A DNA stretch of 64,000 nucleotides from an uncultured bacterium (GTDB taxonomy: Bacteria; Omnitrophota; Omnitrophia; Omnitrophales; Aquincolibacteriaceae). The notes beneath the pieces are model-generated. The model was given only the letters and a program-made list of their open reading frames with translations, was not told the DNA's origin and made no database searches. The position numbers and the translations under genes were made by a program. Positions 1 to 63,136 of this stretch are shown here, in pieces (position 1 is the first letter of the stretch; every line of letters starts with the position of its first letter). Location: contig CAZLTL010000001.1 of NCBI GenBank assembly GCA_964562525.1, positions 32,950 to 96,949 of the forward strand, written 5' to 3'.

Positions 1-3000
1 TTTTGCGGCAATTGCCTGAGGCAAAAGGGATAGAGGCTTCGCAAGAATTACATTTTCCTCCCCGTGCACGGAAATTGCCGCCGACCGCTCCGCTGCGCTG
101 CCGACCGGAACTATAAAGACAGGCACACGATTTTGTTTTGCATCCTCGATGAAACCCATGACTTCCGACTTTTGATCGTCAGACACCTGTTCATCTGTCA
201 CCGCGAACAACATACGGATAGCTTTTGGAGAAGTGTAATTCGGCTCATCATCTTTTTTTGTTTTTTCGATAAAAGCCCCAAGCGCATCGGAGAAACTGGT
301 GCCGCCACCGGCCTCAAGTTTTTTGATCAAATCATAAACAATTTTCTTGGAAGATCTTTTTAAAGGATCCGTGTTTTGGGTTGTTTCATGCGAAACCAAA
401 AGTGTCGGGTCATTTTCAAATAAGCCCAACTCAAAACGTAAAGGCTGGTCGCGATACCCCCTCGTTTCTCGCTCTTCGTTATGCTCAAAAAGCGCTTCAA
501 GTAAAACAAACCCGATAAGCTTCGCTAATTTGATCGGCTCACTACCTGGTGTTCCCCATCCCATACTTCCACTGCGATCAAAAATAATACTGATCGACAT
601 GAGCACCGGCAACTTCTTGACCTCATCCACCATCGCAGGCTGCCCCATTGCCGCTTCCACCAAATGATCGTCTCCCAGCGCTTCACCTTCCGTGAAAGGT
701 CCTACCTCGTTTGTCTTACGGACAGGCAATAAAAGCGCATCCAAAAATTCTTTTGTTTCGTCGATCAAACGCTTCACTTCCACTTTTCTTCCGCGTGCAA
801 CCGTCACCTTTTCTTTTTTCCAACTTAAATACTCCTGCCACTCTTTTACTGTAAATCCCCATTTTTTCGCGTCCGCTTCTTCGTCCATGTCAATTGTCAC
901 GCCGGAAGGTTTAAACGGCTGCAGCTTTGATTTCGTCGGCTTACTCGCGGCATCCTCCACGGATCCAATCCCCGTTAAACCGGTTAAGCCGGAAGCCTGT
1001 AAAGGCAAATCAAACCGCGCGCCGTTTCCACCTTCGGAGCTTTCTGCTGGAGATGAAGGCTCGGAACTTTGTCCCGCCGGCTGTCCTGCGCTGCTTGCAC
1101 CCTTTGGTTCTTGTCCGGGCTGATCGGATGATTTCCCTTGTCCTGGTTGTAGTGCGCCTTCGCCCTGCTTCCCTTCAAGGTTTTTCATGGCTTGCTGTAA
1201 GCCTTGCACCGAAGATTGCAAACCTTCCAAAGTCGAGTCCATGTTCTGCGCCGAACCCTGCATTTTTGCGGCTTGATTTTTGAATTCTTGAATGTTCTTT
1301 TGAACCGCTGCCGCTTGCGCCGAAAGAGTCGACACGTCGGGAGAACCTTCAGCCTCAAGATCTTTTGTGATTTGAGCGATTTGCTGTTTAATTTTTGCGG
1401 CCATCTCTTTTAGTTTTGCAGCTTGGTTTTTGAGCTGCTGAGCGTCTTGAGTTGCTTGCTCAGATTGATTTTGGGCTTGAAGCGCGTCCGGAGACCATGG
1501 CTGTTGCGCCGCCGCCTGCTTCGCCTGTTCTTTTGCCGACTGAGCGCCCTGCAAAACACTCCCGGCATCTTGCTGTAAACTTTGTGTGCCTTGGTCCAAG
1601 CTTGAAGCACCCGATTGAAGCGCTTCCGATAAACCGGATTGAGGCTGCTGAGCAGCGGAATCGCCAGCTTGCGAACCCAAACCCGAAGCTTGATTTTGCA
1701 TCTCACTCAAATTTTGACCCATTTGCCCAAGTTGACTTTGAAGCCCTTGAACTTGACTCGACAAACTATTTAATTGTTGCTCCAACCCGGTTAACATTTG
1801 CTGCATTCCTTTTGAGTCAGCGCCGGCTTGCTGCGTCGCGGCATCGCCTCCCATAGATAAAGGATTCTCAGATTGCTGCGGTGAAGGTGCTGATGGATTT
1901 TGGAATGGCTTGAACGGATTTTTATCGCCGGCCTGAGGTTGCTCGGGGTCAGTCTGCCCGGGTTGTCCGGAACCTGAACCGCTTTCCGTACTCGGCTGAG
2001 AGCTCCCTTGTAAAGCTTGCATCATGCCCTCAACGCCGCCTTGACCTCCGGGTTGACCCGCTTCTCCACCTGATTGCCCGGGTTGTCCTGATTGTCCCGG
2101 AGCATTCCCTTGTCCCGCAGAATCCTGCGCGGTTTGCCCTGATTGCATTTGCCCCTGAAATTGATTTTGCGATTGTTGAAGAGAGTTTTCAGCCATCTGT
2201 TGATGCTGTTTATTCATTTCATCTTTCGCGTCTTCTTTAACTTTGTTGGACGCTTCCAATTTCTGCATTTCTTGTTCAAGAGCAAGGTTATAAAGCCGCT
2301 CATAAGCCGGCCAGACTCTCGCGCCAAAAATATTTGTAAATTTTTCTAAGTCCAACTTTCCGCTATCCAGCAATATTTTGCCGGCGCCCCAGCCGCTTTC
2401 TGTTGCGGTTTGAAAATCCCCGAAAGATTTTTGAATTTCTTCAAGCACCGCCCTGTTTTCAAGGCGCGGGTCCTCCGCCACAAAGACCTCTTGTCCGTTC
2501 CGGCTTTCTTTTTTCACATTCACAAACATATATGTCAGCGAATCCAGATACTGGAGATGTAAGGGCATGGATGCCAACTTCGCTTTTGAAAATGAAATCG
2601 GAATTTGCGGTGAGTAGCGATCTTGAAAAACACGATGAATCCAAAGCACGGCACCCTTTTTAAAGGTATCGCTTAAACCTTGCTTAAACCCAAGCTGGGT
2701 TAGCGTCATCTGAATCACATGAGGCAAACTAAAAATATCCCACGCAATTCCGAAAGCCGGATGGTTTAGGATTTTGTCCGCAATGATTCTCTCGGAAGGC
2801 GCGCGCGCGTGATTGGTTCTTCCCAATGCTAAAAGCGCATGACCCAATACTCTTTCGCGCATCGCCGCGACACGATCCTTAAGCTCACCGTCTTCAAAAC
2901 GCGGTCGAAAGTCAGACGGTAAATATTGCAGCTCGCCTGTGCCGCCATCTATACCATTTTGGAAGTGCCAAAAACCACCCGACACAGGGCGCATTTCGAC

Positions 3001-5919
3001 ATGTTCCCCCGCAAGCGAGCTGACATAGCTCTGCAGCTCAGCGAACACTTTTTCCATATGCGGCTTTTCTTCAGGAAGCGGAGCTCCTTGTCGGGAGTCT
3101 AAAGCATCAAAAACAGATTTTAGATAGGCAAGCGTTCCAAATTGCGAATCCGTAATTTGTTTTTCGTAAAGAAATCCGCCCAGCACAATCGCGACCGCTC
3201 GTTGGCCGGCGTAGCGATTTAAAAATGCCGTTGTAGAAAGCCCCGCGGCCTTATAAGCCAAAACAGCTTGGGCATAAAGCCCATCAAAAAAGACTCCGGA
3301 TCCCGCGCCGCCGGCAACGCCTTCCTTTATTTCAAGGCCGGCACCGCCATCGCGGGCAAATTGCCGGCCTTGCTCAAAAAGTGCTTCTAAAGCTTGGTCA
3401 CCAAACTCATCTTTATAATCATCCAACTTTGCCCCTTCAGGCATATGCTCTACGCGTTCAACGACATCAATCGCGTAGGTTAAAAACTCCCATTCCGCAG
3501 GAACCTTCAAAATTCTTCCGCGGCCAGAAATATCATCCGAGAGGTAATGAATAGCTTCATGCTTGATGGTTGAACGTAAAATAAGCTCGCGGTCTTTTTC
3601 AGACTCGGCCCCTTTTACTGTCATTGATTTGGGATTGGGATTCACCTTGATATTCTTAAAAAGAAGGCTGTAGTGCCCCCACGAATTAATGATTTGCGAA
3701 AGGCCTTCAAGCTGATGAAGTGCTTTCTGCTTCCAGCTTTCAATGGGTCCTTCAAAATCATTTGCGGACATTAAATTGCGAATATCGGTGGTTAAAATAT
3801 CTTTGGAAAGCTGGTCCGATAGACGCTCTTGATCCGGTTGGCTGTCAGGGTAAAGCTCTTCTGTAAACTCTTGAATGATGGTTAAACGCAGGGCTTGGTA
3901 ATCTGCATCGCCTTTACCCACACCTAGTGTTTCGATTTCACGCAAAACACTTTGCGCTGATTCATGCCCAACCAGATCAGCCGGCAAGCCATTTGTCGCA
4001 GCATAAGCATCATCGAGCTTCGATTGTCCAATCGTTTTTAATTTGGGTTTATTTAAATCATCCACAATTTGATAAAAATCACCGAGAGCTCCTCGAAACT
4101 CCTCTGCGTCTTCTTGATTGAGAGCATTAAGCATTTCGAGCTTATAAGCATAAAACCGCTCTACGCCTTCTTTAAAATCTTTCGGCACTGCATAAGGAGC
4201 CCTTGCTTCGGAACGTACCAGACCCGACTGAAGCTGATCGCGTGCCGTGCCTGAGCGAGCTGTCCCCCGAACACCCGCCATTGCCGCGCTAATTTCGGAG
4301 CGGCGGTTTTCAGGCGAAGCGAGGCTAGCAACCTCAGGAGCCGTTTGCGAGAGATTGACCATGCGCAAAAATTGCTGCACCTGAGATGATTCAAGCATGG
4401 CGCGACGGTAGGTTTTCTTCGACTCTTTCAAATCAAATCCACCCGCATTCGGCATAATTGACACATATCCGTATCCCGCTGATTTTAATTTCTCTAAAAC
4501 TCCGGCTTGATGAAAACCACCCGCAACCAAAATAGCGTGATTCTGTTTTTTAGCCTGCATTTGCTTTTGCAAGTTTTCAATAAAACCAATTTCCCGTTCT
4601 TCCGCCACTTTGTAAAAATCCAGCGCTTTCAAAAAAGCTTTGTCGAAATTGGCGTCAAAATCAGCACCTTGCAGCTCTTTCCATAGATTGGAAGGTTTAA
4701 TCTCGGAGTTGCGCTGCTTTACTTTTTGCCACTCATCCGATGTCAGCCCCAACAACAAAAGTTTTCTTAGATAAAAAATCTTTCGATAAACACTCAAAAT
4801 AGCTTGCTCTTCCGGCTGAGGTGCCAATTTTGAGACAATTTCCCATGTCAGCTGTTCCATCTCTTTCATCAACGCAGAGGGTTCCACTTCCTGCATCAAA
4901 GCATTCATCCCTGCCCAACGCGTCCACTCAGGGTAATTCTTAAATTCAAAACCCTTGGGCTGCATCTCAAGCACTAACTCTTCCAACACCGCCCGCATCT
5001 GCGACAACTTCGGCGACAATTCACGAATTTGCTTCACTAAACTTTGCGGGGCTTTATTGGACTCAAGCCATTTCACCAAACGCTGCGACTCTATCTCGGC
5101 TAACTCAGGATTAATTTTTCCTTCCATCTCTTTTAGTTTGAAATACCGCACCAGCATCGGATACTCGAATTGGTGCTTGGGGTTAAGCAAATCCATTTGC
5201 AGAGACGCTTGTGCCTGAAGATTGATTTTGTACAAAGTTTCGGGTAAGGCCTGCGCGGCCGTTTCAGCCTGATCCACCGCTTTTAAAAACTGTAAAAGCT
5301 CCGGCTTCAAAACACTTCCCGCTTTTTTCTGAAATAAAACTGATAAGCGATCCATCGCCGCGGCAAGCTCGGTGTCGCGGCTGATCATTTCACGGAAGGT
5401 TGTTAAATTGTCAGCATAGTCCATCGCTGATTCCGCGCCTTGCCCTTCCGCACAATTTTTTTCGCAATTTTGGTCAATCGCCTGATCCAGCAGAAATATT
5501 TCCGCGCCCGTTAACTCGCCTCTTTCGAGCAAGCGCTCACCCACCAATCGGCTGGGCTCAGCCTCTTCGTAGAAGCGGTATAAGTCGGGTTCAAGTTTTT
5601 GAGCTGCGCCTTCAAGCATGAGTAAATTGATTCCATACTCTTGATTTAAAAATGAAATCAAACTGCGAATGTTTTTTTGCACCGGCAAACTTGCGTGGGC
5701 ATCTTGAATTAAAACAACTGACTTGCCATTGATTCCCTCATAACTTGACTGGATGCTGCCGAACTCAGAAGGAATTTGCTGCGGTAAGGTGACGGCATCG
5801 ACCGTGCCTTCCAAGGCTTGCATCACTTGCGACCAAGAAAGGGGTGCATTTTGTGTCATGATAAAAATCACGACCAAAACCAACGCAACTGACTTTTTAA
5901 AACTTGCGATAAACATCAT
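1..5919 (-). CDS. Giant secreted multidomain protein of at least 1973 aa; the C-terminus lies beyond the left edge of the window. It has a signal peptide, a TraB/GumN(Tiki)-like N-terminal region, a HEAIH motif, a Gln/Gly/Ser-rich low-complexity segment with coiled coil, and a VWA domain (MIDAS DRSGSM...GGGT...TDE).
   Basis: I translated the minus strand by hand from the ATG at 5919 (MMFIASFKKSVALVLVVIFIMTQNAPLSWSQ...). The frame stays open to position 1 with no stop. The ORF track omits it because there is no in-window stop codon. The VWA motifs IIFDRSGSMGW, LEAGGGTSF and LFAVTDEQ lie at about 60 to 620. The TraB/GumN-like motifs VVLIQDAHAS and AILVAGGFHQAGVLEKLKSAGYGYV lie at about 4480 to 5740. 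Confidence 0.75.
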   Translation of the reverse strand, partial: MMFIASFKKSVALVLVVIFIMTQNAPLSWSQVMQALEGTVDAVTLPQQIPSEFGSIQSSYEGINGKSVVLIQDAHASLPVQKNIRSLISFLNQEYGINLLMLEGAAQKLEPDLYRFYEEAEPSRLVGERLLERGELTGAEIFLLDQAIDQNCEKNCAEGQGAESAMDYADNLTTFREMISRDTELAAAMDRLSVLFQKKAGSVLKPELLQFLKAVDQAETAAQALPETLYKINLQAQASLQMDLLNPKHQFEYPMLVRYFKLKEMEGKINPELAEIESQRLVKWLESNKAPQSLVKQIRELSPKLSQMRAVLEELVLEMQPKGFEFKNYPEWTRWAGMNALMQEVEPSALMKEMEQLTWEIVSKLAPQPEEQAILSVYRKIFYLRKLLLLGLTSDEWQKVKQRNSEIKPSNLWKELQGADFDANFDKAFLKALDFYKVAEEREIGFIENLQKQMQAKKQNHAILVAGGFHQAGVLEKLKSAGYGYVSIMPNAGGFDLKESKKTYRRAMLESSQVQQFLRMVNLSQTAPEVASLASPENRRSEISAAMAGVRGTARSGTARDQLQSGLVRSEARAPYAVPKDFKEGVERFYAYKLEMLNALNQEDAEEFRGALGDFYQIVDDLNKPKLKTIGQSKLDDAYAATNGLPADLVGHESAQSVLREIETLGVGKGDADYQALRLTIIQEFTEELYPDSQPDQERLSDQLSKDILTTDIRNLMSANDFEGPIESWKQKALHQLEGLSQIINSWGHYSLLFKNIKVNPNPKSMTVKGAESEKDRELILRSTIKHEAIHYLSDDISGRGRILKVPAEWEFLTYAIDVVERVEHMPEGAKLDDYKDEFGDQALEALFEQGRQFARDGGAGLEIKEGVAGGAGSGVFFDGLYAQAVLAYKAAGLSTTAFLNRYAGQRAVAIVLGGFLYEKQITDSQFGTLAYLKSVFDALDSRQGAPLPEEKPHMEKVFAELQSYVSSLAGEHVEMRPVSGGFWHFQNGIDGGTGELQYLPSDFRPRFEDGELKDRVAAMRERVLGHALLALGRTNHARAPSERIIADKILNHPAFGIAWDIFSLPHVIQMTLTQLGFKQGLSDTFKKGAVLWIHRVFQDRYSPQIPISFSKAKLASMPLHLQYLDSLTYMFVNVKKESRNGQEVFVAEDPRLENRAVLEEIQKSFGDFQTATESGWGAGKILLDSGKLDLEKFTNIFGARVWPAYERLYNLALEQEMQKLEASNKVKEDAKDEMNKQHQQMAENSLQQSQNQFQGQMQSGQTAQDSAGQGNAPGQSGQPGQSGGEAGQPGGQGGVEGMMQALQGSSQPSTESGSGSGQPGQTDPEQPQAGDKNPFKPFQNPSAPSPQQSENPLSMGGDAATQQAGADSKGMQQMLTGLEQQLNSLSSQVQGLQSQLGQMGQNLSEMQNQASGLGSQAGDSAAQQPQSGLSEALQSGASSLDQGTQSLQQDAGSVLQGAQSAKEQAKQAAAQQPWSPDALQAQNQSEQATQDAQQLKNQAAKLKEMAAKIKQQIAQITKDLEAEGSPDVSTLSAQAAAVQKNIQEFKNQAAKMQGSAQNMDSTLEGLQSSVQGLQQAMKNLEGKQGEGALQPGQGKSSDQPGQEPKGASSAGQPAGQSSEPSSPAESSEGGNGARFDLPLQASGLTGLTGIGSVEDAASKPTKSKLQPFKPSGVTIDMDEEADAKKWGFTVKEWQEYLSWKKEKVTVARGRKVEVKRLIDETKEFLDALLLPVRKTNEVGPFTEGEALGDDHLVEAAMGQPAMVDEVKKLPVLMSISIIFDRSGSMGWGTPGSEPIKLAKLIGFVLLEALFEHNEERETRGYRDQPLRFELGLFENDPTLLVSHETTQNTDPLKRSSKKIVYDLIKKLEAGGGTSFSDALGAFIEKTKKDDEPNYTSPKAIRMLFAVTDEQVSDDQKSEVMGFIEDAKQNRVPVFIVPVGSAAERSAAISVHGEENVILAKPLSLLPQAIAAK

Positions 5920-6078
5920 GTTTTCTTAAATAGACAGACTCTAAGCTGCATATGTTTAAATTCCTTTAATAAAAGGATGCCCTCTACATCTGCCTATGTC
6001 AAAAAAAACAAGATAACAAATCATAGCAAAAACTATCATTTAAATAATAAATAACGTATTTACTATCAAATAATTAGA

Positions 6079-6102
6079 AAAGGTGAGTTAAAAAACACCT
6101 TC
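6079..6102 (-). terminator. Candidate intrinsic terminator downstream of the yfcH-like gene (stem AAGGTG/CACCTT followed by a T-rich tract on the minus strand).
   Basis: An inverted repeat was seen directly, followed by TTCTAATTATTT on the minus strand. Confidence 0.3.
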
Positions 6103-6132
6103 TTAACTTTGGGAGCTAGGAAGGTTTCTGAG

Positions 6133-11043: not shown

Positions 11044-13509
11044 TTACTTAGCGTATTTCTTTGCTTTAACTTTAATCAACGGAACCGGACCCGCATTCAC
11101 ATCCGCAACAAACCCGGAGGTTGCTGTCGAACAATGCGTTCCTTTGCCGTCATCAACGGTCAACGAAACATTGTACTGGCCGAACTTGCTGTACGCATGC
11201 TGCGCAGCAGCGCCTTCGCCTGTATTGCCGTCACCGAAGTTCCAAAGATAGCTGAGCTTATCGCCATCCGGATCGGAAGACTGAGCGCCATTGAACTGGC
11301 TCTGTTCTTCCGTGCAGCATACAAGGTTCGGACCTGCGTTCGCAATCGGAGGCGTATTCACGCTTACCGTTGTGTTCGCAGAACCCATACTGCAAGCTGA
11401 ACCCGCGCCGTCATTGGCTGTCACAGTTACAGTATAGTTGCCACCCTGTTTATAAGCGTAGGAAACATTGGATCCGCCTTCGATAGTCGTGCCATCGCCG
11501 AAGTTCCAAGTATACTTAAGCTTATCGCCATCAGGATCATTTGAAGCCGATGCGTCAAGCGATACGGTTTCACCCGTACAAGCATTGCGCGCCTGGTTCA
11601 AGCTCACCATCGGAGCGGAGTTGATGCGTACATTCAAGGCATCCATCGCTGTGGAGCAAGGTGTTCCCTTACCATCATCAACGGTTACGGACGCTGTATA
11701 GCTTCCACCCTTAGCATAAGTATGGCTGACCGACTTACCTTCTTTAACGGTACCGTCGCCCAAGTTCCAAGTGTACTTAGCGCCTTCAGGACCGTTTGCA
11801 TTCAAGGTCACCGCGCCGCCGGAGCAAGAGAAAACATTCTCGCCCGCGTCAACAACCGGAGACTTATTCAAACGCACGGAAACCGTGTCGGTTGAAACAT
11901 TGCAGCCTGCGCCGGAGTTATCCGTTACAGTCAAGCGCGCGGTATATTCACCGGCCTGGCTGTAAACGTGAGTCACTTTTGCGCCTTCAGCTGTTTGGCC
12001 ATCGCCGAAATCCCATGAGTACGCCAAACCATCGTTTTCAGCGTCATAAGATTTGCTGCCGTTAAAAGTGACCGCGTATTCGGCCGCTTGGCTTGTCAAG
12101 CAAAGAGCAACGTCATCGCCTGCAACCGCAACCGGTGCGCTGTTCACTTTAATTTGAGAGCTGCAACCCGCGAGAGAACATTCTGTGTTCTGACCATCAT
12201 TCACCGTAAGAGAAACATTATATGTTCCGCCCTGGGAGAAAGTCTTCGAAACAGAAGCACCTTCCGCTGTCGTACCATCGCCAAAGTTCCAGAGATATCC
12301 AAGTTCTTTGGATTCACCATCGCTCGAACCGACGCCGCTGATTGAAACAGCCTGACCGACGCAAGCAGATTGAGGAACGCTCAAGCCGCAAACCGGAGGT
12401 GTATTCACCAAAACGGATTGGGTAGTTGTTTTCTTTTCGCAATGAAGACCGGAGTTGTCGCTAACAGTCAAGGCCACATTATAACTTCCGCCTTTTCCAT
12501 AAACGTGAGTCACAACCGGTTCTGTGCTGGTAACGCCATCACCAAAGTCCCAAAGATAAGTAATCTTATCTTTGTTGGTGTCATAGGAGTCACGCGCGTC
12601 AAATTCAAATACGTTACATGCGCTTGGTTCCGGAGCCGGAGCAACCGGAGCTTCAAAGCCGCCGCGTTTGAAATAAATCGGAAGAGCATTACCTTTATCA
12701 TCGGTAAACTGAACGCCCGCGTTACCGCGAGTTTGGTTCGTTGTAGTTACCGTGTAAGCCAAACGACGCGCATCATCATTACCGAGAGTCACAGGCGTTT
12801 CAGCCCATTGACCGCTCACGGAATCCGCAACGTCATAAGATTTGCCGGTTGCGCCGTCCTGAAAACGTCCAACGCCGCCGTCTTTATCAAGGTCGAAATT
12901 GCGCGCAACGATATTGGTTACGCCATTCGGAATCGCAGGATAAAAATTGATTTGATCTCCCTTGCGAGGAAGCAAGCGGAAATAAAATTTTTCGCTGAAT
13001 GTTTCAGCGTAGTCCGGAGTGATCTTGAACTTAAACAAGTTCTGGTCATCGCCTTTGGTCGTTTGAACCAAAACGCGAAAACGATAAAAATCACCCACGT
13101 CTTTACCGGTATCAGGCTTAAAGCTGCCAAGCTGTGTCCAAGAACCATCACCCTTGGATGAACCCGCGCCAAAAGTTTCAGAAGCAAGAACTTCTTTACC
13201 TTCAACTGAGAAAACGGTTTCAGTATCAGCAACGGCTTTGCCGAACCCGCCGATAGCGTCAACTTTGCCGGATGCATCCGCGTCATAAACGCTAATGCTT
13301 ACCGCTTCAGTAGAAGCCTTCGGTACGTCAACAAAAAGAGCCATCTGCGTGTCATCTTTGCCACGAAGCGGATCCCCTTCCGGACCGAAAAGGTAAAAAT
13401 ATTCAGCCTTCGAGTTTTCTTTCGGCACTTCATAAGCAAAAGTGCTTACCGGAAAAGCAAGAGACAGAACAAGTAACGGAGCAATAAAGCCCGCAAGTTT
13501 CTTGATCAT
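11044..13509 (-). CDS. Secreted surface protein with multiple PKD repeats.
   Basis: Recurring YxWDFGDG/WNFGDGT signatures occur at least six times, followed by ...SVSDNxG/TVxDGxG. Signal peptide MIKKLAGFIAPLLVLSLAFPVSTFA. The start is set at the internal ATG rather than the track start at 13560. Confidence 0.8.
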   Translation of the reverse strand: MIKKLAGFIAPLLVLSLAFPVSTFAYEVPKENSKAEYFYLFGPEGDPLRGKDDTQMALFVDVPKASTEAVSISVYDADASGKVDAIGGFGKAVADTETVFSVEGKEVLASETFGAGSSKGDGSWTQLGSFKPDTGKDVGDFYRFRVLVQTTKGDDQNLFKFKITPDYAETFSEKFYFRLLPRKGDQINFYPAIPNGVTNIVARNFDLDKDGGVGRFQDGATGKSYDVADSVSGQWAETPVTLGNDDARRLAYTVTTTNQTRGNAGVQFTDDKGNALPIYFKRGGFEAPVAPAPEPSACNVFEFDARDSYDTNKDKITYLWDFGDGVTSTEPVVTHVYGKGGSYNVALTVSDNSGLHCEKKTTTQSVLVNTPPVCGLSVPQSACVGQAVSISGVGSSDGESKELGYLWNFGDGTTAEGASVSKTFSQGGTYNVSLTVNDGQNTECSLAGCSSQIKVNSAPVAVAGDDVALCLTSQAAEYAVTFNGSKSYDAENDGLAYSWDFGDGQTAEGAKVTHVYSQAGEYTARLTVTDNSGAGCNVSTDTVSVRLNKSPVVDAGENVFSCSGGAVTLNANGPEGAKYTWNLGDGTVKEGKSVSHTYAKGGSYTASVTVDDGKGTPCSTAMDALNVRINSAPMVSLNQARNACTGETVSLDASASNDPDGDKLKYTWNFGDGTTIEGGSNVSYAYKQGGNYTVTVTANDGAGSACSMGSANTTVSVNTPPIANAGPNLVCCTEEQSQFNGAQSSDPDGDKLSYLWNFGDGNTGEGAAAQHAYSKFGQYNVSLTVDDGKGTHCSTATSGFVADVNAGPVPLIKVKAKKYAK

Positions 13510-13735
13510 GGAGTAACTCCTGGTTTGGTTATTGGTTTTAGTTCTGATAATTAAGGACAAAATAGTTTTCTGCCCTAAAACTGCTTCTCAGACGCATTTT
13601 TGAAATAAATATTCACTCAAACTTCTAAAAATGAATCTTAAGAGAGGGCATATTGTAGACCAAAAAGAGAAACGGACAAGCAAAATCTAGCTTTGTAGTG
13701 GGGGTAAAATTATTTTTATAGGACGCGGTCAGACT

Positions 13736-15033: not shown

Positions 15034-15360
15034 TTAGTTGGCCCGAAAAACCTTAACGGTCACGGACTGCCCATTAGCCCAGGGCCAAATAAAGGAATAA
15101 TAGTAAAGCTCTTCGGAAGCAAGATAATAGAGAGTCTGATCGTCGCGAATGCCGCCGTATTCATTTGCCATTTTCTTATCGTCCGAACTGGGTTTGGCTC
15201 CCGCGGGCTTAACCGGCTTTCCAAAAAAGGTTTCAAGCACTTGATTCACTTTGGGAAGATCAGCAACTTTCACGACAAGCTCAAAATACTCCTCATCATC
15301 GCTACGCAACTCCTGGCAAGGCGCCTTTCGCAATTCTGCCAACAAAAGATCATAACGCAT
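15034..15360 (-). CDS. Hypothetical protein (108 aa).
   Basis: ORF only. Start abuts the end of the upstream gene. Confidence 0.4.
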   Translation of the reverse strand: MRYDLLLAELRKAPCQELRSDDEEYFELVVKVADLPKVNQVLETFFGKPVKPAGAKPSSDDKKMANEYGGIRDDQTLYYLASEELYYYSFIWPWANGQSVTVKVFRAN

Positions 15361-16076
15361 TAGGCTGCCTTTCTCTGTTCAGGCGCGGACAACCGAAGCC
15401 GGTTCTCCTCCTCCTCGATTTTTGAAAAAATACCTTCCAAAGCTCTTTTCGAAACTTCTTCTTCCAAATCAAAGACAGCCTCAGAATTTCTAACGAAAGG
15501 CAGTGACGCGTAAAGAGTCTTGAACTCAATGTACCCCTGCAAAGCCGTCTGACTACTGACGGATCGCTCAATTTCGCGACGAAAGTCTTGTTGCAAACGT
15601 GTCTCCATTTTGCGGCGGAAATACTGTGTTAGCGACCCCTCTTCTATGAGGATTTGCTCGGGCTTTTTTTCAAATTTTAAATCTTCAAGCGCATCTTTCA
15701 TTAAAACCCCGGCCTTCGGCGCGGCAGTTTCCGCCGCACGGTTAAGCCCCATTTGAAAATCATGCCAAAACAAATCAGCATTCAACTTCTTTGAGATTTT
15801 TTCAATTCCTTTGACCGTGTTAGGAACATCAATTCGAAGCTCAGGCTGATGATAAAAGCCGTTTACCTGACTGACTTCAAGCACGGTATTGTCGATCGCC
15901 TGACGCAGCAAATCTTTCATCGTTCGTTCATTCGCGGAATTTCCTTCTCCGCGTCCCTGAAAAAAGAAAATACGGCTGATAAAACCATCCGCCATAAGCA
16001 CAGGCGCAAAAGAAAAAAGAGAGAAACTTAAAAGAACTGCAGCGACGACTTGTCGTCCCATATTTTTAATTTTCAT
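15360..16076 (-). CDS. Secreted protein, possibly DUF4197 family.
   Basis: Signal peptide present. The NRAAETAAPKAGVLMKDALEDL and EGSLTQYF segments are reminiscent of DUF4197. This assignment comes from memory. Confidence 0.45.
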   Translation of the reverse strand: MKIKNMGRQVVAAVLLSFSLFSFAPVLMADGFISRIFFFQGRGEGNSANERTMKDLLRQAIDNTVLEVSQVNGFYHQPELRIDVPNTVKGIEKISKKLNADLFWHDFQMGLNRAAETAAPKAGVLMKDALEDLKFEKKPEQILIEEGSLTQYFRRKMETRLQQDFRREIERSVSSQTALQGYIEFKTLYASLPFVRNSEAVFDLEEEVSKRALEGIFSKIEEEENRLRLSAPEQRKAA

Positions 16077-16246
16077 AACTCACCCGACCTAATTCCCATT
16101 ATAAAAATGTCCGGGAAAAGTATCGGCATCTTTCTCTGAGTTCTGAAGACAGGTAAATAAACACCTCCGCAGCAAATAAGAATAAAAAAGCCTAACCTTT
16201 TTAAAAAGCTTTGAATGTAACGCACAAGCAAGTATTTAAGATTTCT

Positions 16247-16351
16247 CAAAAAGGTTCAGTCGCAAGGCGCAAACGAACGCCCGCGGAGCCGTAGTGAAAC
16301 CCCTACGGCGCACAAGGAAGTGATGTTTGCAAGGCAGCGAATAACCTTTTT
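16247..16351. repeat. Copy A of a ~100-nt conserved structured intergenic element (second copy at 54216-54335).
   Basis: Both copies share a terminal inverted repeat (AAAAAGGTT...AACCTTTTT) and a core (CAAGGCG..GCGGAG..GTAG...TACG.CGCACAAGGAAG.GA..TT.GCAA...AGC). The internal hairpin reads CCGTAG/CTACGG in A and GCGCAG/CTACGC in B, a compensatory change at the closing pair. Confidence 0.6.
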
Positions 16352-16361
16352 CAGGAATCTT

Positions 16362-17216
16362 TTAGCAGGATTTGCGGATGATGAGTTCGGGGGAAACCAC
16401 ACGAGTTACAGGCTCAAGCGATTTTTTTTCAATTTGTTCCATTAAAATCTTAACTGCTTCGCGTCCCATCAGCTCAAGCGGTTGACCGATGGTTGTCAGC
16501 GAGGGTTCAGTGTATTTCCCCTTCCGAATTCCGTCATAACCAATCACCGCGACTTGATCCGGAACCCGAATCCAGTTTTCTTTCAACGCGCGAATCGCGC
16601 CGATGGCAATATCGTCATTCACGCAAATAATCGCACGCGGCAGTTTTTCACATTGATGGATCATATCCAGCATTTTTAAATAGCCGTCTTCTTCAAAAAA
16701 ATAATCGCATTTGCGGTAATGCTCGGGATCAAAAGTCAGCTGATATTGCCCTAAAAGTTCGCGCAACAAATCGTAGCGCTGGCGCGCGTCAAGTGAAGCA
16801 TCATCGGGAGCATGCAACATGCCGATTTTTCTGTATCCGCGGCTGAGCAAATGCCGCATCGCGAGATGAACGCCTTCTTTATTGTCGCAATAAACAATGC
16901 TTGAACGTAGTCCCGGAGTCGGATCATTGATCACAATGACGGGAATCTTTTTTTCATCCAAGGCTTCCGCGATATAACGGTCATGAATGCGCCAGGTAAT
17001 TAAAATTAATGCGTCAATTTGATGCCGGTCTAAAATTTTAAAATCCGGATCGCGATACTCTTCTTCTTTAACCAAAATCAGGCGAAAATCATGCGGTGTC
17101 CCGACAAGCGCGTTGGTCGCTCCGATCAAAAGCTGCGTGAAATAGTCCCCTTTGAAAAGCTCCGGGGTAAAAGCCCCTATCAAGCCGATCGTTAACCGTT
17201 TCTTTGTCTCACTCAT
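16362..17216 (-). CDS. LacI-type periplasmic-binding-fold (Peripla_BP) domain protein lacking the N-terminal HTH.
   Basis: 284 aa that aligns to the ligand-binding core of LacI/GalR regulators (IGLIG...; VIGYDG...TTI). The sequence starts directly in the sugar-binding domain with no HTH and no signal peptide. Confidence 0.6.
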   Translation of the reverse strand: MSETKKRLTIGLIGAFTPELFKGDYFTQLLIGATNALVGTPHDFRLILVKEEEYRDPDFKILDRHQIDALILITWRIHDRYIAEALDEKKIPVIVINDPTPGLRSSIVYCDNKEGVHLAMRHLLSRGYRKIGMLHAPDDASLDARQRYDLLRELLGQYQLTFDPEHYRKCDYFFEEDGYLKMLDMIHQCEKLPRAIICVNDDIAIGAIRALKENWIRVPDQVAVIGYDGIRKGKYTEPSLTTIGQPLELMGREAVKILMEQIEKKSLEPVTRVVSPELIIRKSC

Positions 17217-17280: not shown

Positions 17281-18003
17281 TCAAATACGCAAGCACCGTT
17301 TAGAAAAAGGATGCCAAAAAAAAGCCGGCACTCCGCCTTCAATACTGCCATTTGGACGAACTAAATTGCGAAACAATTCAAAACCGGAAGCATCTTGAAT
17401 AATTGAATTTCGGCTCTCATCGCGAAAAATAAAACAACGATTCGTAGATGTTTCTTTAGATAAAAATTTTTTCATACGCCGCGCCAAAGCTGCGGAATCA
17501 AGTTTATAAAAATCAGTTTTGAGCTTGGACTCCACTCTTCCGAAATCAGCCTCGGTGTGTTTCTCTAATATCCCCCAAAGCGAACCAAACTGGATCAAAC
17601 GCCTTTCGCAAACAGCTTGCTTTGCCGCGTGCCGCGCGAGCAAGCCCGCAAACTCGCTCCAAGTCCGTGGCGCATCTCCTACAAAAAACTGCAGAACTTC
17701 AAACGAGTAATACCCACGCACAACTTCTGACAATTGACGCATCGCACCGGCATAAAAATCTTGAAACGCGCGAAAAATAATTTTCTCATCATCCGTAATC
17801 AAAGAAAAAACACTCAAATTTACCGGCGCGCCGTCAGCGCTCTGCGCCTGATAAAGCACAGCGTCCCCATCGCGCCCCAGCCAACAAAGCGATCCGGGAA
17901 CCAAATTGAGTTCAGGTGGAATAAAAAAAGACTGCTGCTCAAAGAGAGTGAGCGGCTCAATAGGCTTAAGAGCCGGTGATTCATTTTGATCCGGCATATT
18001 CAA
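17281..18003 (-). CDS. Hypothetical protein (240 aa), last gene of a four-gene operon.
   Basis: ORF overlaps the upstream gene by 4 nt. Confidence 0.5.
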   Translation of the reverse strand: MNMPDQNESPALKPIEPLTLFEQQSFFIPPELNLVPGSLCWLGRDGDAVLYQAQSADGAPVNLSVFSLITDDEKIIFRAFQDFYAGAMRQLSEVVRGYYSFEVLQFFVGDAPRTWSEFAGLLARHAAKQAVCERRLIQFGSLWGILEKHTEADFGRVESKLKTDFYKLDSAALARRMKKFLSKETSTNRCFIFRDESRNSIIQDASGFELFRNLVRPNGSIEGGVPAFFWHPFSKRCLRI

Positions 18004-19118
18004 GGCAAAACGACTTGGCGGCTCGGTAATGCTGCCGTTTTTTTTGCCGCCGCCGCCTTAACGGCCTTCTTCTTGCGGATAACTCGAGGATCTTTAAAAA
18101 TCATTTTTTCAACTTGATCTTCGGTCATTTTTTTCTCGGCATAATCAATCCCCAGCGCATTATGGTGGCGGTCTTTCTCGCTTTCCTGCGCGGTATTACC
18201 CGTATCGCCAATTTCGTGCGCGTCGGTCGTTCGACGCGCAAACTCAGCGCCATAGGCTTTTGTAAGCCAATAACTCCAAAAAATATGCCGGATGACGTCA
18301 TACAAAATTTCAGGGTCACGCTTTTGAAGCTTCACGGCGCGCATCTCCGCCTCGCGGCGAAAATGAAGCAGCTTCGGCATTCTTATTAAATTTTGAGAAG
18401 CCAACATCAGATCTGATTCCGTAAATTTAGGCTCAATCATTTCAGCGATAATTCTTAAGTCTTCCGGGTTACCTTCTAAATGAACTTCTCCTTTTTCATT
18501 TTGAACCGAGTGGAACCGGACAGAAATAGGCCAATCGTCGACTAAAAAAACAGCCTTTCCGCTCATGGACAAATTTTTAATCGGCTTATCCTGAAAGATC
18601 CAGTCTTTATAAACACGCGCGCGTTTCAAAACTTGCGCCTTCCAAGAACGAGGATTGCCGTTCAAAAGCAGCCGGGTTTGAAAATCCATTTTAGAGACGG
18701 ATTCAACGCGCTCTTGATCATCACGATCTTCATGCAAAAGCCGCCCACCGCGCGCATTCAATCCGGAAATTTGAACTTGCACCTCGATCCCCTTAAGACT
18801 GATTTGCTTCAAACCTAAGTGAACTTGACTGACAGTTAATTCAAATTCACGCGGATCGAGATAAGGATGTTCAAAGCGGCTAACACCGCGGGCGCGGATA
18901 TTCTTCAGCGCTATGCCCGTTCTTGATAATTTAAACTTTCCATAATCAAAGAAGTTAATTTCAAAACTAGTCCCTTCTGTTTTCTTGACCCACGCTTGCA
19001 ATTGATGATCAAGCCGCGGCTTCAAAATAAGCGCCGCCGTAACAAGCGTCACCACAAAGAGGATGGCTGCGATAATTAAAAGCTGAAAAAATTTGATCAT
19101 ATTGAAGATAGCAATCAA
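18000..19118 (-). CDS. Membrane-anchored protein of unknown function; tandem paralog of the gene at 19122-20276.
   Basis: N-terminal TM helix. The C-terminus has a shared invariant block FWSYWLT..YG.EFARRTTDAHEIGDTGNTAQESEKDRHHNALGIDYA. Confidence 0.65.
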   Translation of the reverse strand: MIAIFNMIKFFQLLIIAAILFVVTLVTAALILKPRLDHQLQAWVKKTEGTSFEINFFDYGKFKLSRTGIALKNIRARGVSRFEHPYLDPREFELTVSQVHLGLKQISLKGIEVQVQISGLNARGGRLLHEDRDDQERVESVSKMDFQTRLLLNGNPRSWKAQVLKRARVYKDWIFQDKPIKNLSMSGKAVFLVDDWPISVRFHSVQNEKGEVHLEGNPEDLRIIAEMIEPKFTESDLMLASQNLIRMPKLLHFRREAEMRAVKLQKRDPEILYDVIRHIFWSYWLTKAYGAEFARRTTDAHEIGDTGNTAQESEKDRHHNALGIDYAEKKMTEDQVEKMIFKDPRVIRKKKAVKAAAAKKTAALPSRQVVLP

Positions 19119-19121
19119 CCC

Positions 19122-20276
19122 TTAAGCAATTTGATTTTGCAAGATACGCGGGTCGGTTAAAATAATTTTCGCGACATCTTGCTCGGAAAGTTTTCGCTGG
19201 GCATATTCAATTCCAAGCGCGTTATTGCGGCGGTCTTTTTCACTTTCCCGCGCGGTATTGGACGCATCCCCGATTTCATGAGCATCCGTCACTCTGCGCG
19301 CAAAATCCGTCCCAAAGGTCTGCGTCAAATAATAACTCCAAAAAACATGTCTGAAAGTGTCATAACTAATTTCCGAACCAAACTGATAGAGCGCTTCCGC
19401 TTTCGCTTCCGCGAGGGTCCGAACATGCAGCAACCGCGGCGTTTTTAAGAAATTCTTGGAAGCAATCCGCACGTCTTCCTCGGTAAATTTAGGTTCAATG
19501 GCGTGGGCGATTTTACGCAAGTCATTTATATCGCCTTCAAGATAAGTCGCCCGATTACGCTCCTTACTCGACGCAAAGTAAACCCGGGTCGTCACGCCAT
19601 CCGTGGCAAATGTCGCGTTCCCGCTCATGTGCACATCCGTCATATGTGCTCCGTTAAAAACCCAACTCTTAAATTGACGCACCCAAACGATAGCCTGCTT
19701 CTTCCATTTCCAAGGTGCCCTGCCAATCGGAATCCAAGCTTGAAAATTCAGTTCTGAAAGGGAATCTAATCTGCGAGGGCTATCCTCCGCTCCGGGGAGA
19801 ACAGCCCCTCCCTGCACATCCAAGCCATGAATATGAAGACCCACGCCCAAGCCCTCACGGAAGTTGCTCTTGAAATAAATCTGTAAAATCGGGATATCCA
19901 TTTCAAATTGGCGGGGCTGAAAATAGGGGTAATCATATCTTATGATCCCGCGCGCGCGCACCTGCTTAAAAACAATTCCTTGGTGGGAAAAACGAAAACC
20001 CCCATATTCAAAAAAGTTAACTTCGAAGTTTCGCCCCTTGGATCGATCCACCCAGCTTTCAATCTTCTGTTTCACGAAAGGTTCAATACCGGAAAAAACA
20101 AAAAAAAGAATACTCGCAACAACAAAAACAAAGCCTAAGCCCGCTCCGATGAAATAAATCTTTTTGCTTAACTTAAAGTCCGGCTTTAATTTAGATTTTT
20201 TATAATGCTTCAGCTCAAACTCATCGTCTTTGCGGGTTTTTCTGTCGATCTCATTCTTTAACTGCGAGTACTTCAC
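19122..20276 (-). CDS. Membrane-anchored protein of unknown function; tandem paralog of the gene at 18000-19118.
   Basis: Same architecture. C-terminal block FWSYYLTQTFGTDFARRVTDAHEIGDASNTARESEKDRRNNALGIEYA. Confidence 0.65.
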   Translation of the reverse strand: MKYSQLKNEIDRKTRKDDEFELKHYKKSKLKPDFKLSKKIYFIGAGLGFVFVVASILFFVFSGIEPFVKQKIESWVDRSKGRNFEVNFFEYGGFRFSHQGIVFKQVRARGIIRYDYPYFQPRQFEMDIPILQIYFKSNFREGLGVGLHIHGLDVQGGAVLPGAEDSPRRLDSLSELNFQAWIPIGRAPWKWKKQAIVWVRQFKSWVFNGAHMTDVHMSGNATFATDGVTTRVYFASSKERNRATYLEGDINDLRKIAHAIEPKFTEEDVRIASKNFLKTPRLLHVRTLAEAKAEALYQFGSEISYDTFRHVFWSYYLTQTFGTDFARRVTDAHEIGDASNTARESEKDRRNNALGIEYAQRKLSEQDVAKIILTDPRILQNQIA

Positions 20277-29834: not shown

Positions 29835-31556
29835 ATGATCAAAACAAAATTTATTTTGGTTGTTTTAGGTCTTTGTTTAGCCATCGCCACCCCCGCCCGG
29901 TCGGCAGAGGATGCAGACTTCGCCTCAGCCGATACAAACATTGCTTCGCAAATAGAAATCCTCAAAAACCAAAATAAAAAAACCATCGCCTTGCCCCCCC
30001 CCGTTTCAATCGAAGAAAAAACATCTCAAGAACCTGACTCAAAACCCTCAGAAGGAAAACTTCTTGTCAAAAAAATCGTCTTTGAGGGCAATCAAATTTT
30101 GTCAGCCACCGATCTCTCCGCTGTAACTCGCGAAGCAGAAGGACAATCACTCACCTTTGATGAACTTAAAGCTGTCGCAGCAAAAGTTACGGCGCTTTAC
30201 CGCTCCCGCGGTTATTTGATTTCAAGGGCTTTTTTACCGCCGCAGAAAATTCAAAGCGGTATTGTTATCATTCAAATTCTCGAGGGCAAAGCCGGCAAAA
30301 TTAAGGTGGAAGATAACCGCTGGTTTAAAGATAAGATTTACGAGCGCTTCTTTAAAAATCTGAATACCGACAATCCTTTTCAGTACAGTGACTTGGAGTC
30401 CTCCCTTTACTTTTTAAACGAAAAGGAAGACCGTCGCGCCAAAGCTTATCTTGAGCCGGGACAAGAACCCGGCACTACGGATATCACGCTTAAAGCTCAA
30501 GAGAAATTTCCGCTCCATTTGAGTTACGAGTTTAATAATCGCGGCTCACGGTTCACGCATCGTGCCCGGCAAATGGCTCATTTAAGACACACCAATTTAT
30601 TTGGATTTGATGACGTCCTGAACGCGGGATTTTCTTTAGCTGAACAGTCTGCCTTTCAGGCGGCATGGACTCAGTATGTTTTGCCAATTCAGCAAACCGG
30701 AACGGAATTGGGTCTCAATTGGAGCTACGCTCGCACACACCTCGCAAAGCACTTGCGGAACTTTAATATCGAAGGACGTTATTTTGAGATCACACCGAAT
30801 ATCACTCAATCCATTATCCGTCGCCGCACTTTTTCTTTTGACTGGTCAGCCGCGTTTGAGATCAAAGATTCTAAATCAACCGTAGCTAACCTCAAGACGA
30901 GCTTTGACCGCATGCGCGTCATTAAAACAGGTCCACGCTTAACCCATCAAGACCGTTGGGGCAAAACCATTTTTTCAGCGGACACGCATGTCGGACTTGG
31001 AAATTTTATGGGGTCACTTGAAAGCGATGATCCCAACGCCAGCCGCAATGGCGCAGGCGGAAGTTTTGTTTATTATTCCGGCTCTTTAGCGCGGTTCAAC
31101 CGCCTCCCTCTCAACTCTTTCCTCATTTTGAGAGCAGAGGCGCAATGGTCACCTGTCACGCTCACATCACTTGAACAATTTCGTGCGGGAGGAATGTATT
31201 CGGTACGCGGCTATCCCGAATCCGACAGCGCCGGAGACCGAGGCTATGTCACATCGGCGGAAATTAACTTCCCTGTACCGCTTATTCCCAAAGATTTAAA
31301 AATGCCGGGTATCCGCAAAAAATACAGCGAGGTTTTTCGTTTGGCGGGATTTTATGATTTAGGCGCAACCGAAAACAGGTCCAGACAAACACCGGCGGAA
31401 GTAAAAAACCATTTCCTAATGGGGGCGGGCTTCGGTGTTCGCGTCAATCTCGATCAATACCTCAGTATGGTGATTGATTTTGGTTATCCTGTCGGAGATG
31501 AGTCAACCGACAAAGACCAGCCTCAAATTCATTTCTCAGTCAAAGCCGGCTTTTAA
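29835..31556 (+). CDS. TpsB (ShlB/FhaC/HecB family) two-partner-secretion outer-membrane transporter.
   Basis: Signal peptide, a POTRA region and a C-terminal beta-barrel ending in ...FSVKAGF. Family-typical size. Confidence 0.75.
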   Translation: MIKTKFILVVLGLCLAIATPARSAEDADFASADTNIASQIEILKNQNKKTIALPPPVSIEEKTSQEPDSKPSEGKLLVKKIVFEGNQILSATDLSAVTREAEGQSLTFDELKAVAAKVTALYRSRGYLISRAFLPPQKIQSGIVIIQILEGKAGKIKVEDNRWFKDKIYERFFKNLNTDNPFQYSDLESSLYFLNEKEDRRAKAYLEPGQEPGTTDITLKAQEKFPLHLSYEFNNRGSRFTHRARQMAHLRHTNLFGFDDVLNAGFSLAEQSAFQAAWTQYVLPIQQTGTELGLNWSYARTHLAKHLRNFNIEGRYFEITPNITQSIIRRRTFSFDWSAAFEIKDSKSTVANLKTSFDRMRVIKTGPRLTHQDRWGKTIFSADTHVGLGNFMGSLESDDPNASRNGAGGSFVYYSGSLARFNRLPLNSFLILRAEAQWSPVTLTSLEQFRAGGMYSVRGYPESDSAGDRGYVTSAEINFPVPLIPKDLKMPGIRKKYSEVFRLAGFYDLGATENRSRQTPAEVKNHFLMGAGFGVRVNLDQYLSMVIDFGYPVGDESTDKDQPQIHFSVKAGF

Positions 31557-47813: not shown

Positions 47814-48743
47814 ATGGCAAAGCATAAACCCTATCGCATTGTTGTTTATGCTCTCGCGCGTGGCGTTGCGGCTTTTTTTTACCTATTCCCGCGCGCTTTC
47901 CTTCTCGCATTTGCGCGCTTCTTGGGTTCGTTTGTTTTTTGGGCCGTTCCAAAACACCGCCGCGAAGTCCTACGCAATCTGACGACGGCTTTTGGAAACA
48001 GAAAGACACCTCAGGAAATTCGCCGCTTATCTCAAAGCGTTTTTCAACATCTCGCTCAAACCGCTTTTGAAGTTTTACAATTTCCAAAATGGAAGCACTA
48101 TCCCCTGGAAGAAATTATTGAATTCGGCGACGCGCCGGATCGATATCGCGCGCTTTTAAGCGAAGGCAAAGGGCTGATCACCATCACATCCCATATCGGC
48201 AACTGGGAGCTTCTGGGCGGCATCCCCTCCATGAAAGGTTTTAAAAGCAAAGCCATCGCACGGCGTCTTCGCTACCCCCGTTTTCAAAACTGGGTTGAAA
48301 GCTTAAGAAACTCTATCGGCGTTGAACTGATTTACCGCGATGATTCACCCAAAAAAATTTTTCAATGTCTCAAAAGCGGCGAAGCACTCGGCCTCTTGCC
48401 CGATCAAGATATTGCAGGGCTTAAAGGCGTATTCGTTGATTTCTTCGGCAAACCAGCGCATACCAGCATCGCCCCCGTAAAACTTTCTTTAGCGACAGGC
48501 GCTCCGATCGCATGCGTGTTTTTGATACGCTTGCCGCATGACCGTTATAAGATTTTTTTCAGCGATGTCCTTCGTCCCAAGATTGAAACAACTGAAGCCG
48601 AGGCGCTGCAAAAATACACCGCGCTATGGATGAAAGATGTAGAAGAAATTATTCGGCAATATCCGGATCAGTGGGGATGGATGCATAACCGCTGGAAAAC
48701 CCAACCCAGGCTCACTGAAAATGTCTCGTCTGCTGCGTTATAA
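47814..48743 (+). CDS. LpxL/LpxM/LpxP-family lipid A biosynthesis (lauroyl/myristoyl) acyltransferase.
   Basis: The HIGNWELLG segment matches the HX4D/E-type acyltransferase motif of the family. N-terminal membrane anchor. 309 aa. Confidence 0.7.
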   Translation: MAKHKPYRIVVYALARGVAAFFYLFPRAFLLAFARFLGSFVFWAVPKHRREVLRNLTTAFGNRKTPQEIRRLSQSVFQHLAQTAFEVLQFPKWKHYPLEEIIEFGDAPDRYRALLSEGKGLITITSHIGNWELLGGIPSMKGFKSKAIARRLRYPRFQNWVESLRNSIGVELIYRDDSPKKIFQCLKSGEALGLLPDQDIAGLKGVFVDFFGKPAHTSIAPVKLSLATGAPIACVFLIRLPHDRYKIFFSDVLRPKIETTEAEALQKYTALWMKDVEEIIRQYPDQWGWMHNRWKTQPRLTENVSSAAL

Positions 48744-48847
48744 ACTCGCTTCTTTGTGCGACATACTTTTAACAGTATGTCTCCGCAGGCGCTCGTTTAT
48801 GCCTGGCATCCAAAACATTTTGATTGAGCCCAATCACAGAAAATATT

Positions 48848-54187: not shown

Positions 54188-54215
54188 AGACCGCTTCGAC
54201 TCCCTCTGCTAATCC

Positions 54216-54335
54216 AAAAAGGTTTAGTTGTAGTTGCGACCATAAACAAGGCGTGAATGAGCGCATGCGGAGGCGCAGTAAAAGCTACGCCGCACAAGGA
54301 AGCGAAATTCGCAACGAAGCAGATACCCCTTTTTC
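54216..54335. repeat. Copy B of the ~100-nt conserved structured intergenic element (copy A at 16247-16351), with an 18-nt insertion near its 5' end.
   Basis: See copy A. Lies between two convergent gene ends. Confidence 0.6.
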
Positions 54336-61904: not shown

Positions 61905-61971
61905 TTTATTCTCTCCTGTTAATCCGCAAACCGCTTAAGTGCGGTCTGTGGCTTGATTGTTGATCAAATCT

Positions 61972-62982: not shown

Positions 62983-63136
62983 CTCTTCCTTTTGGATTAC
63001 GGTTGAGCGACAGCTCAGAGCCGAAACAAGAACACCCCACGGAAACGCCCATGGGACAAGGATTTCAAGGCGGTGGTACTTTAACACTCCTCAATGAAGG
63101 CGTCAAAATTTTTTTACGAATTTTTTTTAAAAATTT

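Follow-up and report, generated by a model that had tools for sequence, protein, structure and literature searches.

REP, BIME and REPIN sequences of Proteobacteria are multicopy extragenic hairpins that lie in 3' untranslated regions (3'UTRs) and spacers, often near stop codons and without target duplication, and the element described here is like them in these respects. The Proteobacterial sequences are co-transcribed, act as 3' stabilisers of mRNA or as attenuators, and are mobilised by RAYT Y1 transposases. ERIC (IRU) sequences of Enterobacteria and Correia (NEMIS) sequences of Neisseria are imperfect palindromes of 100-155 nt which are found in transcribed intergenic DNA only. Once transcribed, they fold and influence the mRNA in a way that depends on their orientation, and compensatory changes maintain their structure. 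Our element is likewise an intergenic imperfect palindrome of similar size in which compensatory changes preserve the fold.

The nearest published counterpart is a multicopy set of sequences in Geobacter. In G. metallireducens, Gmet_R1001-R1024 were annotated as 'predicted short RNA elements' (Aklujkar et al. 2009, BMC Microbiol 9:109, PMC2700814, Additional file 4). The same source reports G. sulfurreducens GSU0160.1, located between dapAB and dapL, as the equivalent of Gmet_R1005, i.e. at the same place in two species, and further occurrences in G. uraniireducens and Desulfotalea (PMC2700814). The description consists of a BLAST alignment and the label 'predicted short RNA' only; it gives no structure, covariation, orientation or stop-codon rule and no occurrence beyond Desulfobacterota (PMC2700814). 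In the later literature that we searched, neither the Gmet_R tags nor the core sequence was mentioned.

Here we analysed copies of this kind in a 64,000-nt stretch of DNA from an uncultured member of the Omnitrophota (called the window throughout, meaning the whole stretch) and in further genomes. New are the structure, its covariation, the rule on stop codons and orientation, and the occurrence outside Desulfobacterota.

Copies of the element in the window

The first-pass annotation had described a structured intergenic element at 16247-16351 with a second copy 38 kb away, both at the 3' ends of genes. Sequence and coordinates were as described, and the two copies, A and B, align as one element with 79% mean column identity. 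A 9-bp outer stem (AAGATTTCT/AGGAATCTT) lies outside of the coordinates originally quoted for A, and the full hairpin is therefore longer (Table 1). The terminal inverted repeat was thought to be identical in both copies, which is not the case, as B combines a 5' AAAAAGGTT with a 3' ACCCCTTTTT. A compensatory difference in the closing pair of the internal hairpin (C-G to G-C) is real, but the hairpin of B also contains one C.A mismatch. Regarding gene ends, A abuts the stop codon of the LacI-type gene and B contains that of the methyltransferase gene, where the TGA of a conserved TGAAAAAG (plus-strand TCA, 54334-36) is itself the stop. Copy A folds with -45 kcal/mol on either strand (z about -4). 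In copy B the lower 5' loop is enlarged by a 16-nt insertion and the outer stem is weak, and the copy does not fold better than shuffled sequence (z -0.69).

The 12-mer CGCACAAGGAAG, allowing up to one mismatch, occurs 5 times in the window compared with 0.35 expected, a count reached in 0 of 100 shuffles. Its match at 48749-48760 on the minus strand exposed a third full copy, C, whose motif GCGGAG..CGCACAAAGAAG is on the minus strand with both neighbouring genes on the plus strand. Another match, at 16221-32, is part of a truncated remnant beside A, in which AAAAAGCTTTGAATGTAA (the 5' end of the element) is fused directly to CGCACAAGCAAG (the core, with one mismatch); the covariance model gave a weak match of 10.9 bits near it. 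E values of the covariance model for A, C and B range from 5e-31 to 7e-19, and scores in the rest of the window are all 16 bits or less.

Table 1. Copies of the element in the window, with their parts and neighbouring genes. The mRNA sense is that of the upstream gene; scores are those of the covariance model.
Feature	Position	Strand	Remarks
Copy A, full hairpin	16238-16361	motif +, mRNA sense -	125.7 bits, E 4.9e-31
A, outer arms	16238-16246 and 16353-16361		
A, C.C mismatch	16247/16352		
A, A5GG/CCT5 clamp	16248-16256/16343-16351		
A, invariant GCGGAG	16283-16288		followed by hairpin CCGTAG..CTACGG
A, invariant CGCACAAGGAAGTGA	16309-16323		
Gene upstream of A, LacI-type periplasmic-binding domain	16362-17216	-	stop codon 16362-16364 touches the hairpin base
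Gene downstream of A, DUF4197	15360-16076	-	start ~160 nt beyond the hairpin
Decayed, internally deleted remnant adjoining A	16203-16232	mRNA sense -	sequence match
Copy B, degenerate	54214-54336	motif +, mRNA sense -	81.2 bits
Gene upstream of B, CMAS-type methyltransferase	54334-55362	-	
Copy C	48709-48830	motif -, mRNA sense +	107.9 bits
Gene before C, lipid-A acyltransferase-like	47814-48743	+	ORF enters the element
Gene after C, IF-2B-family	48824-49951	+	
Glycerol-3-phosphate dehydrogenase gene (gpsA-type), next to an empty site	61972-63087	-	

The ORF upstream of C runs ~35 nt into the element and ends with a TAA inside the variable inner stem. At 48709-48743 this acyltransferase-like ORF thus draws its last ~10 codons and its stop from copy C. 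The ortholog of C in the Omnitrophota genome GFS_2494 uses the identical TAA as stop codon with a different encoded tail.

Family size and distribution

We scanned one genome per GTDB species with the pattern GCGGAGN{16,22}CGCACAARGAAGNGA and obtained at least 105 loci. After removal of chance matches in coding DNA, 83 genuine copies remained among the matches listed, including the three of the window. The covariance model found 99 copies in 562 kb of scanned loci, with at most 3 per 8 kb, and the strict pattern therefore misses about one fifth of the copies. The search for further copies, proposed as a check after the first pair, was positive, with 83 pattern matches (among those listed) and about 20 more by covariance model. 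Pairwise identity between copies is 75-86%.

Richest in pattern matches are the Omnitrophota MAGs GFS_12873 (at least 19), UBA2337 (at least 13) and GFS_2494 (at least 9). The window is syntenic with GFS_2494 and GFS_12873 at ~70-74% nucleotide identity, which indicates a related Omnitrophota bacterium as its source. Other carriers among the matches listed are an Auribacterota MAG, two unclassified MAGs, a 'Nitrospirae' MAG, about 12 Geobacter genomes, and single records labelled Chlamydiae, Planctomycetia, Bdellovibrionales and Rokubacteria. Searching a plasmid collection by blastn with both element types gave no match, and viral contigs gave a single one, by chance, in coding DNA.

Some copies in UBA2337, GFS_2494 and an unclassified MAG form local clusters of 2-3 within a few hundred nt (scanned loci L031, L058, L091 and L085). 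At L058, two copies (2383-2530 and 2929-3077) have the same orientation, and at L031 a copy at 4578-4727 (+) is adjoined by one at 4907-5056 (-). These clusters look like local hot spots.

The family is not represented in Rfam as searched here. At gathering score, only a tRNA matched in the whole window, and at E up to 10 copies A and B, for which such a check had been proposed, and one Geobacter-type copy returned only noise.

Relation to the Geobacter elements

Judged by its sequence, copy A belongs to the Gmet_R1001-R1024 family. The published Gmet alignment is the reverse complement of the Geobacter-type copies that we recovered: its central palindrome is GRCGTAGCGCTGCTACGCC, and our copies carry the reverse complement GGCGTAGCAGCGCTACGYC. 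In the published orientation the palindrome is flanked by CTTGTGCG on the 5' side and CTCCGCGG on the 3' side, within intergenic, multicopy sequences of ~113 nt, and the copies found here agree in these features. The reverse complement of A in the window reads CTTCCTTGTGCG-CCGTAG..CTACGG-CTCCGCGGG. All three hairpins of the window are located at the position of the palindrome with covaried sequence (CCGTAG/CTACGG, GCGCAG/CTACGC and ACATACT/AGTATGT). A single covariance model matches Omnitrophota and Geobacter types alike with E < 1e-15. The window copies are of the Omnitrophota type and differ from the Geobacter type by the A5G/CU5 clamp, the AGATGCAAGGC...AACGCAGCAGATGA lower loop and another hairpin sequence.

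Structure and covariation

We call the orientation in which the element was first described F, and its reverse complement, which is the mRNA sense of the upstream gene, R. Since both genes flanking A are on the minus strand, the orientation first written was antisense to them. The element is a long hairpin of ~125 nt with five helices and an 8-9 bp outer stem, all of which covary. In F orientation the 5' half of the Omnitrophota-type consensus is ARNYYGHTC-AAAAAG-nnTnAGATGCAAGGC-(6 variable)-GAGCGMCY-GCGGAG-(hairpin), and the 3' half after the hairpin is CGCACAARGAAGYGA-n-(6 complementary)-AACGCAGCAGATGA-nn-CTTTTT-CA-(outer arm). The CU5 tract that follows the inner hairpin pairs with A5G and is enclosed by the covarying outer stem.

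Covariation, for which a test had been proposed after the first two copies, is strong. RNAalifold on 76 copies yielded 26 pairs, 21 of them with compensatory changes. Pairing was possible in 91.2% of cells compared with 75.6% in column shuffles, double-change cells numbered 317 where 95 were expected, and the covariation score was 0.47 versus 0.19 in shuffles; not one of 500 shuffles reached the observed pairing, double changes or covariation score. When partners were slid against each other, pairing dropped to 31-51%. A lone pair between the Y before GCGGAG and the R in CAARGAAG is C-G in 52 copies, U-A in 18, U-G in 6 and C-A in 0. Within the outer stem, positions 2-9 pair in 77-96% of copies, versus 38-86% when arms are mixed between copies, and position 1 is a conserved C.C mismatch. 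The outer arms are distinct in 46 of 53 cases. Insertion into an existing terminator hairpin was considered as their origin and rejected, because the inner 6-bp helix varies likewise; it is also countered by arms that look like a diverged ARNYYGHTC consensus and by an empty gpsA-type site without arms.

About 30 unpaired nt (GCGGAG, CGCACAARGAAGNGA) are invariant from Omnitrophota to Geobacter. This agrees with the earlier argument that a plain terminator would need no conserved core. GCGGAG, CGCACAA, GAAG and GA were found in 76 of 76 copies, the first three being fixed by the search pattern.

Folding is more stable for the F strand than for the R strand (-54.0 versus -49.1 kcal/mol; 60 copies versus 14), which may just reflect purine-rich loops. 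Counts of G.U versus A.C favour the F strand in the outer stem (30:14) and are balanced in the inner variable stem (19:17) and the hairpin (15:15).

Position and orientation relative to genes

A close relation to stop codons became apparent across the copies. In R orientation, 57 of 77 copies have the stop of an ORF of at least 80 aa located 0-18 nt before the conserved TGAAAAAG, compared with 2 of 77 in F orientation. This distance has its mode at ~9 nt, just the length of an outer arm. The 57 stops comprise 28 TAA, 19 TGA and 10 TAG, and in six copies, B included, the conserved TGA itself is the stop codon. The rule holds for Geobacter-type copies too. Genes that run into the element at random were rejected as its cause, as 6 stop at the TGA and 1 deeper, while about one third would be expected to stop at the TGA.

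Viewed in the F frame, neighbouring genes are co-directional with the element in R at 36 copies, convergent at 16, co-directional with the element in F at 12, and divergent at 9. About half of the copies are intercistronic, with the next start codon typically 15-30 nt past the hairpin. Between convergent genes the element still lies against the stop of the gene for which it is R-oriented, despite free spacer on the opposite side, and genome compaction alone therefore does not explain the rule. Within the 8-kb loci, neither a recurrent flanking gene family nor a transposase was found beside the copies. Being in the sense of the upstream gene, the R strand would be present in the mRNA of this gene unless transcription ends within a few nt of the stop, and we infer that it is transcribed together with the gene.

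Gain, loss and retention of copies

Insertion polymorphism between related genomes, as expected of miniature inverted-repeat elements (MITEs), was found at three loci, each with the element in one genome and without it in a relative that keeps the flanking genes. Copy A is missing from a strain that has the LacI-type protein too (88% nucleotide identity), where the spacer measures 110 nt in place of the 285 nt in the window. At the ortholog of the B site, GFS_2494 has ~99 nt rather than 234 and no element. The third case is the reverse: GFS_12873 (L025:4448-4596) and GFS_2494 (L016:1-130) have a copy directly after the stop of the gpsA-type gene, and this site is empty in the window (61921-61972, ~50 nt with a small TTGAT/ATCAA palindrome).

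Copy C is orthologous in the window and GFS_2494. Its loops are conserved, and the outer arms are unrelated in sequence between the two, yet complementary within each genome; the Y/R pair is U-A in one and C-G in the other. A search for target-site duplications revealed no direct repeat above expectation for arm lengths of 7-13 and k of 2-4. No transposase was seen beside the copies and no conserved terminal inverted repeats were found, and mobility is proposed from presence/absence and copy number only.

The empty B site of GFS_2494 (L016:4085-4110, orthologous to ~54190-54340 of the window) contains a 12-bp hairpin, cTTTTTGAGC-ttgtg-GCTCAAAAAg (-16.8 kcal/mol, z -4.2). The two arms are identical to the junction motifs of the element, GCTCAAAAAG and CTTTTTGAGC, but with the T-run first. 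This hairpin could be a footprint, a proto-site or a coincidence.

Possible nature and function of the element

The explanation that we favour, and to which we give about an even chance of being right, is a REP/ERIC-like, non-autonomous structured repeat that would be co-transcribed as a 3'UTR or intercistronic hairpin. The first-pass annotation had offered a terminator or 3'UTR structure, a small ncRNA or a REP/MITE-like repeat; this choice narrows to a REP/ERIC-like repeat in 3'UTRs and spacers, and an independent sRNA gene is unlikely. In the mRNA of the upstream gene the element would form the 3'UTR or the intercistronic spacer, and there it would close up as a rod, at whose base lie the A5G/CU5 clamp and the outer stem. 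As a 3' hairpin, this rod might shield the upstream message from 3' exonucleases and/or partly terminate read-through. The base of the rod lies right at the stop codon and would therefore be opened by a ribosome that terminates there. Stop-proximal REP sequences reportedly have an effect on translation (Higgins/Newbury work; Liang and Deutscher). Spread as a non-autonomous repeat would depend on a putative trans-acting factor, and the invariant loops are the likely recognition site of such a partner, which would be an RNA-binding protein or an enzyme that mobilises the element. A possible reason for the orientation bias is that, the other way round, Shine-Dalgarno-like GGAGG and AAGGAAG loops would be exposed in the mRNA.

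The likeness to known repeats has its limits. A REP is a simple palindrome of ~35 nt with a GTAG head and a REPIN consists of two inverted REPs, whereas the element forms a rod of ~125 nt whose invariant internal loops are asymmetric and whose helices are different in almost every copy. We found neither a palindrome of 20-40 nt with a conserved 5' GTAG nor two such sequences in inverted order; GTAG is not conserved, and copy C has ACATAC. No RAYT gene was seen beside the copies in the 8-kb loci. ERIC and Correia sequences have conserved terminal inverted repeats and TA target duplications, while here no duplication and variable termini were found, together with an extreme orientation bias (57 versus 2) and a family that spans phyla. 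The terminal inverted repeats and target-site duplication of a MITE were likewise not found, and the outer arms differ between copies.

Against this repeat reading also stands that the F (antisense) strand folds ~5 kcal/mol better and has purine-rich loops. Purine-rich loops are more typical of functional RNAs. Because DNA-level insertion cannot obviously sense a stop codon, the flush placement points to a function or selection at the level of RNA or translation, for which a purely selfish repeat would have no need. For REP or MITE families, loops that stay invariant between phyla are unusual. Exact stop placement and loop conservation across phyla exceed what known REP/MITE families display, which opens the possibility of a dedicated functional RNA.

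Such an RNA would be a new class of cis-acting element of benefit to the host, whose copies are kept by selection on each gene and not by selfish spread; candidates are a protein-binding element, a processing site, or a self-cleaving or termination-sensing element at ORF 3' ends. We regard this as unlikely; in its favour are the ~30 invariant unpaired nt beside freely covarying helices from Omnitrophota to Geobacter, the exact stop placement in one orientation in both lineages, and orthologous copies maintained via compensatory change. The reported equivalence of Gmet_R1005 and GSU0160.1 in two species (PMC2700814) also fits. However, the genes beside the copies share no common trait, close relatives that retain the flanking genes differ in whether a copy is present, degenerate and fragmentary copies persist, and several copies may occupy one spacer or crowd within a few hundred nt. 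Nor was a match obtained to any kind of Rfam family. Likenesses to SRP RNA domain IV, k-turns, the hairpin ribozyme and CsrA sites were considered and discarded, as no test supports them.

A more specific proposal, which we think rather improbable, is a functional RNA class found across phyla and coupled to translation termination, in which the ribosome would open the rod base at the stop. Such an RNA might govern how 3' ends are formed, how the RNA between cistrons is processed (possibly by self-cleavage) or how the downstream cistron is expressed, the last for example via the anti-Shine-Dalgarno-like CCUCC and CUUCCUU loops. On this view the flush stop of 57 of 77 copies would be required for function and would not stem from a bias of insertion.

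Alternatively, the element might act as DNA, its single-stranded fold being the substrate of an HUH/Y1 enzyme (REPIN/RAYT- or IS200/IS605-like) or of a recombinase as in integron attC sites, with transcription into RNA incidental. Like attC, the element is a hairpin in which structure counts over sequence, with important unpaired bases, directly 3' of an ORF and in fixed orientation right after its stop. The lack of target-site duplications and of conserved terminal inverted repeats is as in REP and IS200/IS605-type elements, and hairpin fold stability shows strand asymmetry. Still, we consider this rather improbable as well. The attC cores R'' (RYYYAAC) and R' (GTTRRRY) are not conserved in the family, which has long invariant internal loops instead, and copies are scattered among housekeeping genes without forming arrays. 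They are not moving cassettes, since the element alone is polymorphic and not a gene together with its element. The arms are not two inverted REPs, since the conserved loops are asymmetric. Furthermore, no transposase or integrase adjoins any copy in the 8-kb loci, and the element is absent from the plasmids and viral contigs searched.

Independent sRNA genes on the F strand, convergent with the neighbouring gene and ending at CU5, for example with GGA loops as a protein sponge, are very improbable. The F strand does fold better, and its loops GGAGG and ACAAGGAAG may resemble CsrA/Rsm-type GGA motifs. However, no promoter-like site was found upstream of A on the F strand, the alignment has no conserved upstream sequence, a promoter would sit inside coding DNA in about half of the copies because the next gene starts 15-30 nt away, and the orientation tracks the stop codon of the upstream gene.

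Equally remote is the idea of ordinary bidirectional intrinsic terminators that are alike by convergence: an A5G...CU5 clamp around a stable hairpin at gene ends does resemble their A-tract, hairpin and U-tract, and by eye, a T-run of some kind follows the outer 3' arm (mRNA sense) in about half of the copies, but the shared ~30-nt invariant loops and the identity between copies rule out convergence, the outer stem would not exist in a terminated transcript because the U-tract is buried inside, under the covarying 8-9 bp stem, about half of the copies are intercistronic with the next gene close, and a terminator scan calls nothing at A.

If the REP/ERIC-like repeat reading is right, the multicopy sequence of Geobacter and hundreds of copies in Omnitrophota, Auribacterota and other MAGs would be one structured family. 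Adding such a family to Rfam, which has none, would then improve the annotation of compact genomes. One orientation and a base touching the stop codon, from Omnitrophota to Geobacter, are hard to explain by DNA-level transposition alone, and the family would be a tractable case for studying the ways in which structured repeats live alongside translation termination and operon expression or make use of them. As Geobacter can be cultured and is open to genetic work, direct testing should be possible.

Other features of the window

A stretch of 4.3 kb (1857-6132), in which no ORF of at least 90 aa is listed, was considered as non-coding DNA. This was rejected, as a giant minus-strand ORF is present there, with 6 in-frame stops across the stretch; the region looks ORF-free because this ORF runs off the left edge of the window. 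Two further minus-strand ORFs contain internal repeats, one of 838 aa (11044-13560) with six direct-repeat units at a period of ~261-264 nt within 11100-12600, and one of 1601 aa (31553-36358) with units ~870-906 nt apart within 32800-34400. Both probably encode surface proteins with repeated domains. The adjacent minus-strand genes at 18000-19118, which has a DUF6973 match, and 19122-20276 share a 227-nt stretch (18085-18311 and 19147-19373) with 71% identity and are probably tandem paralogs.
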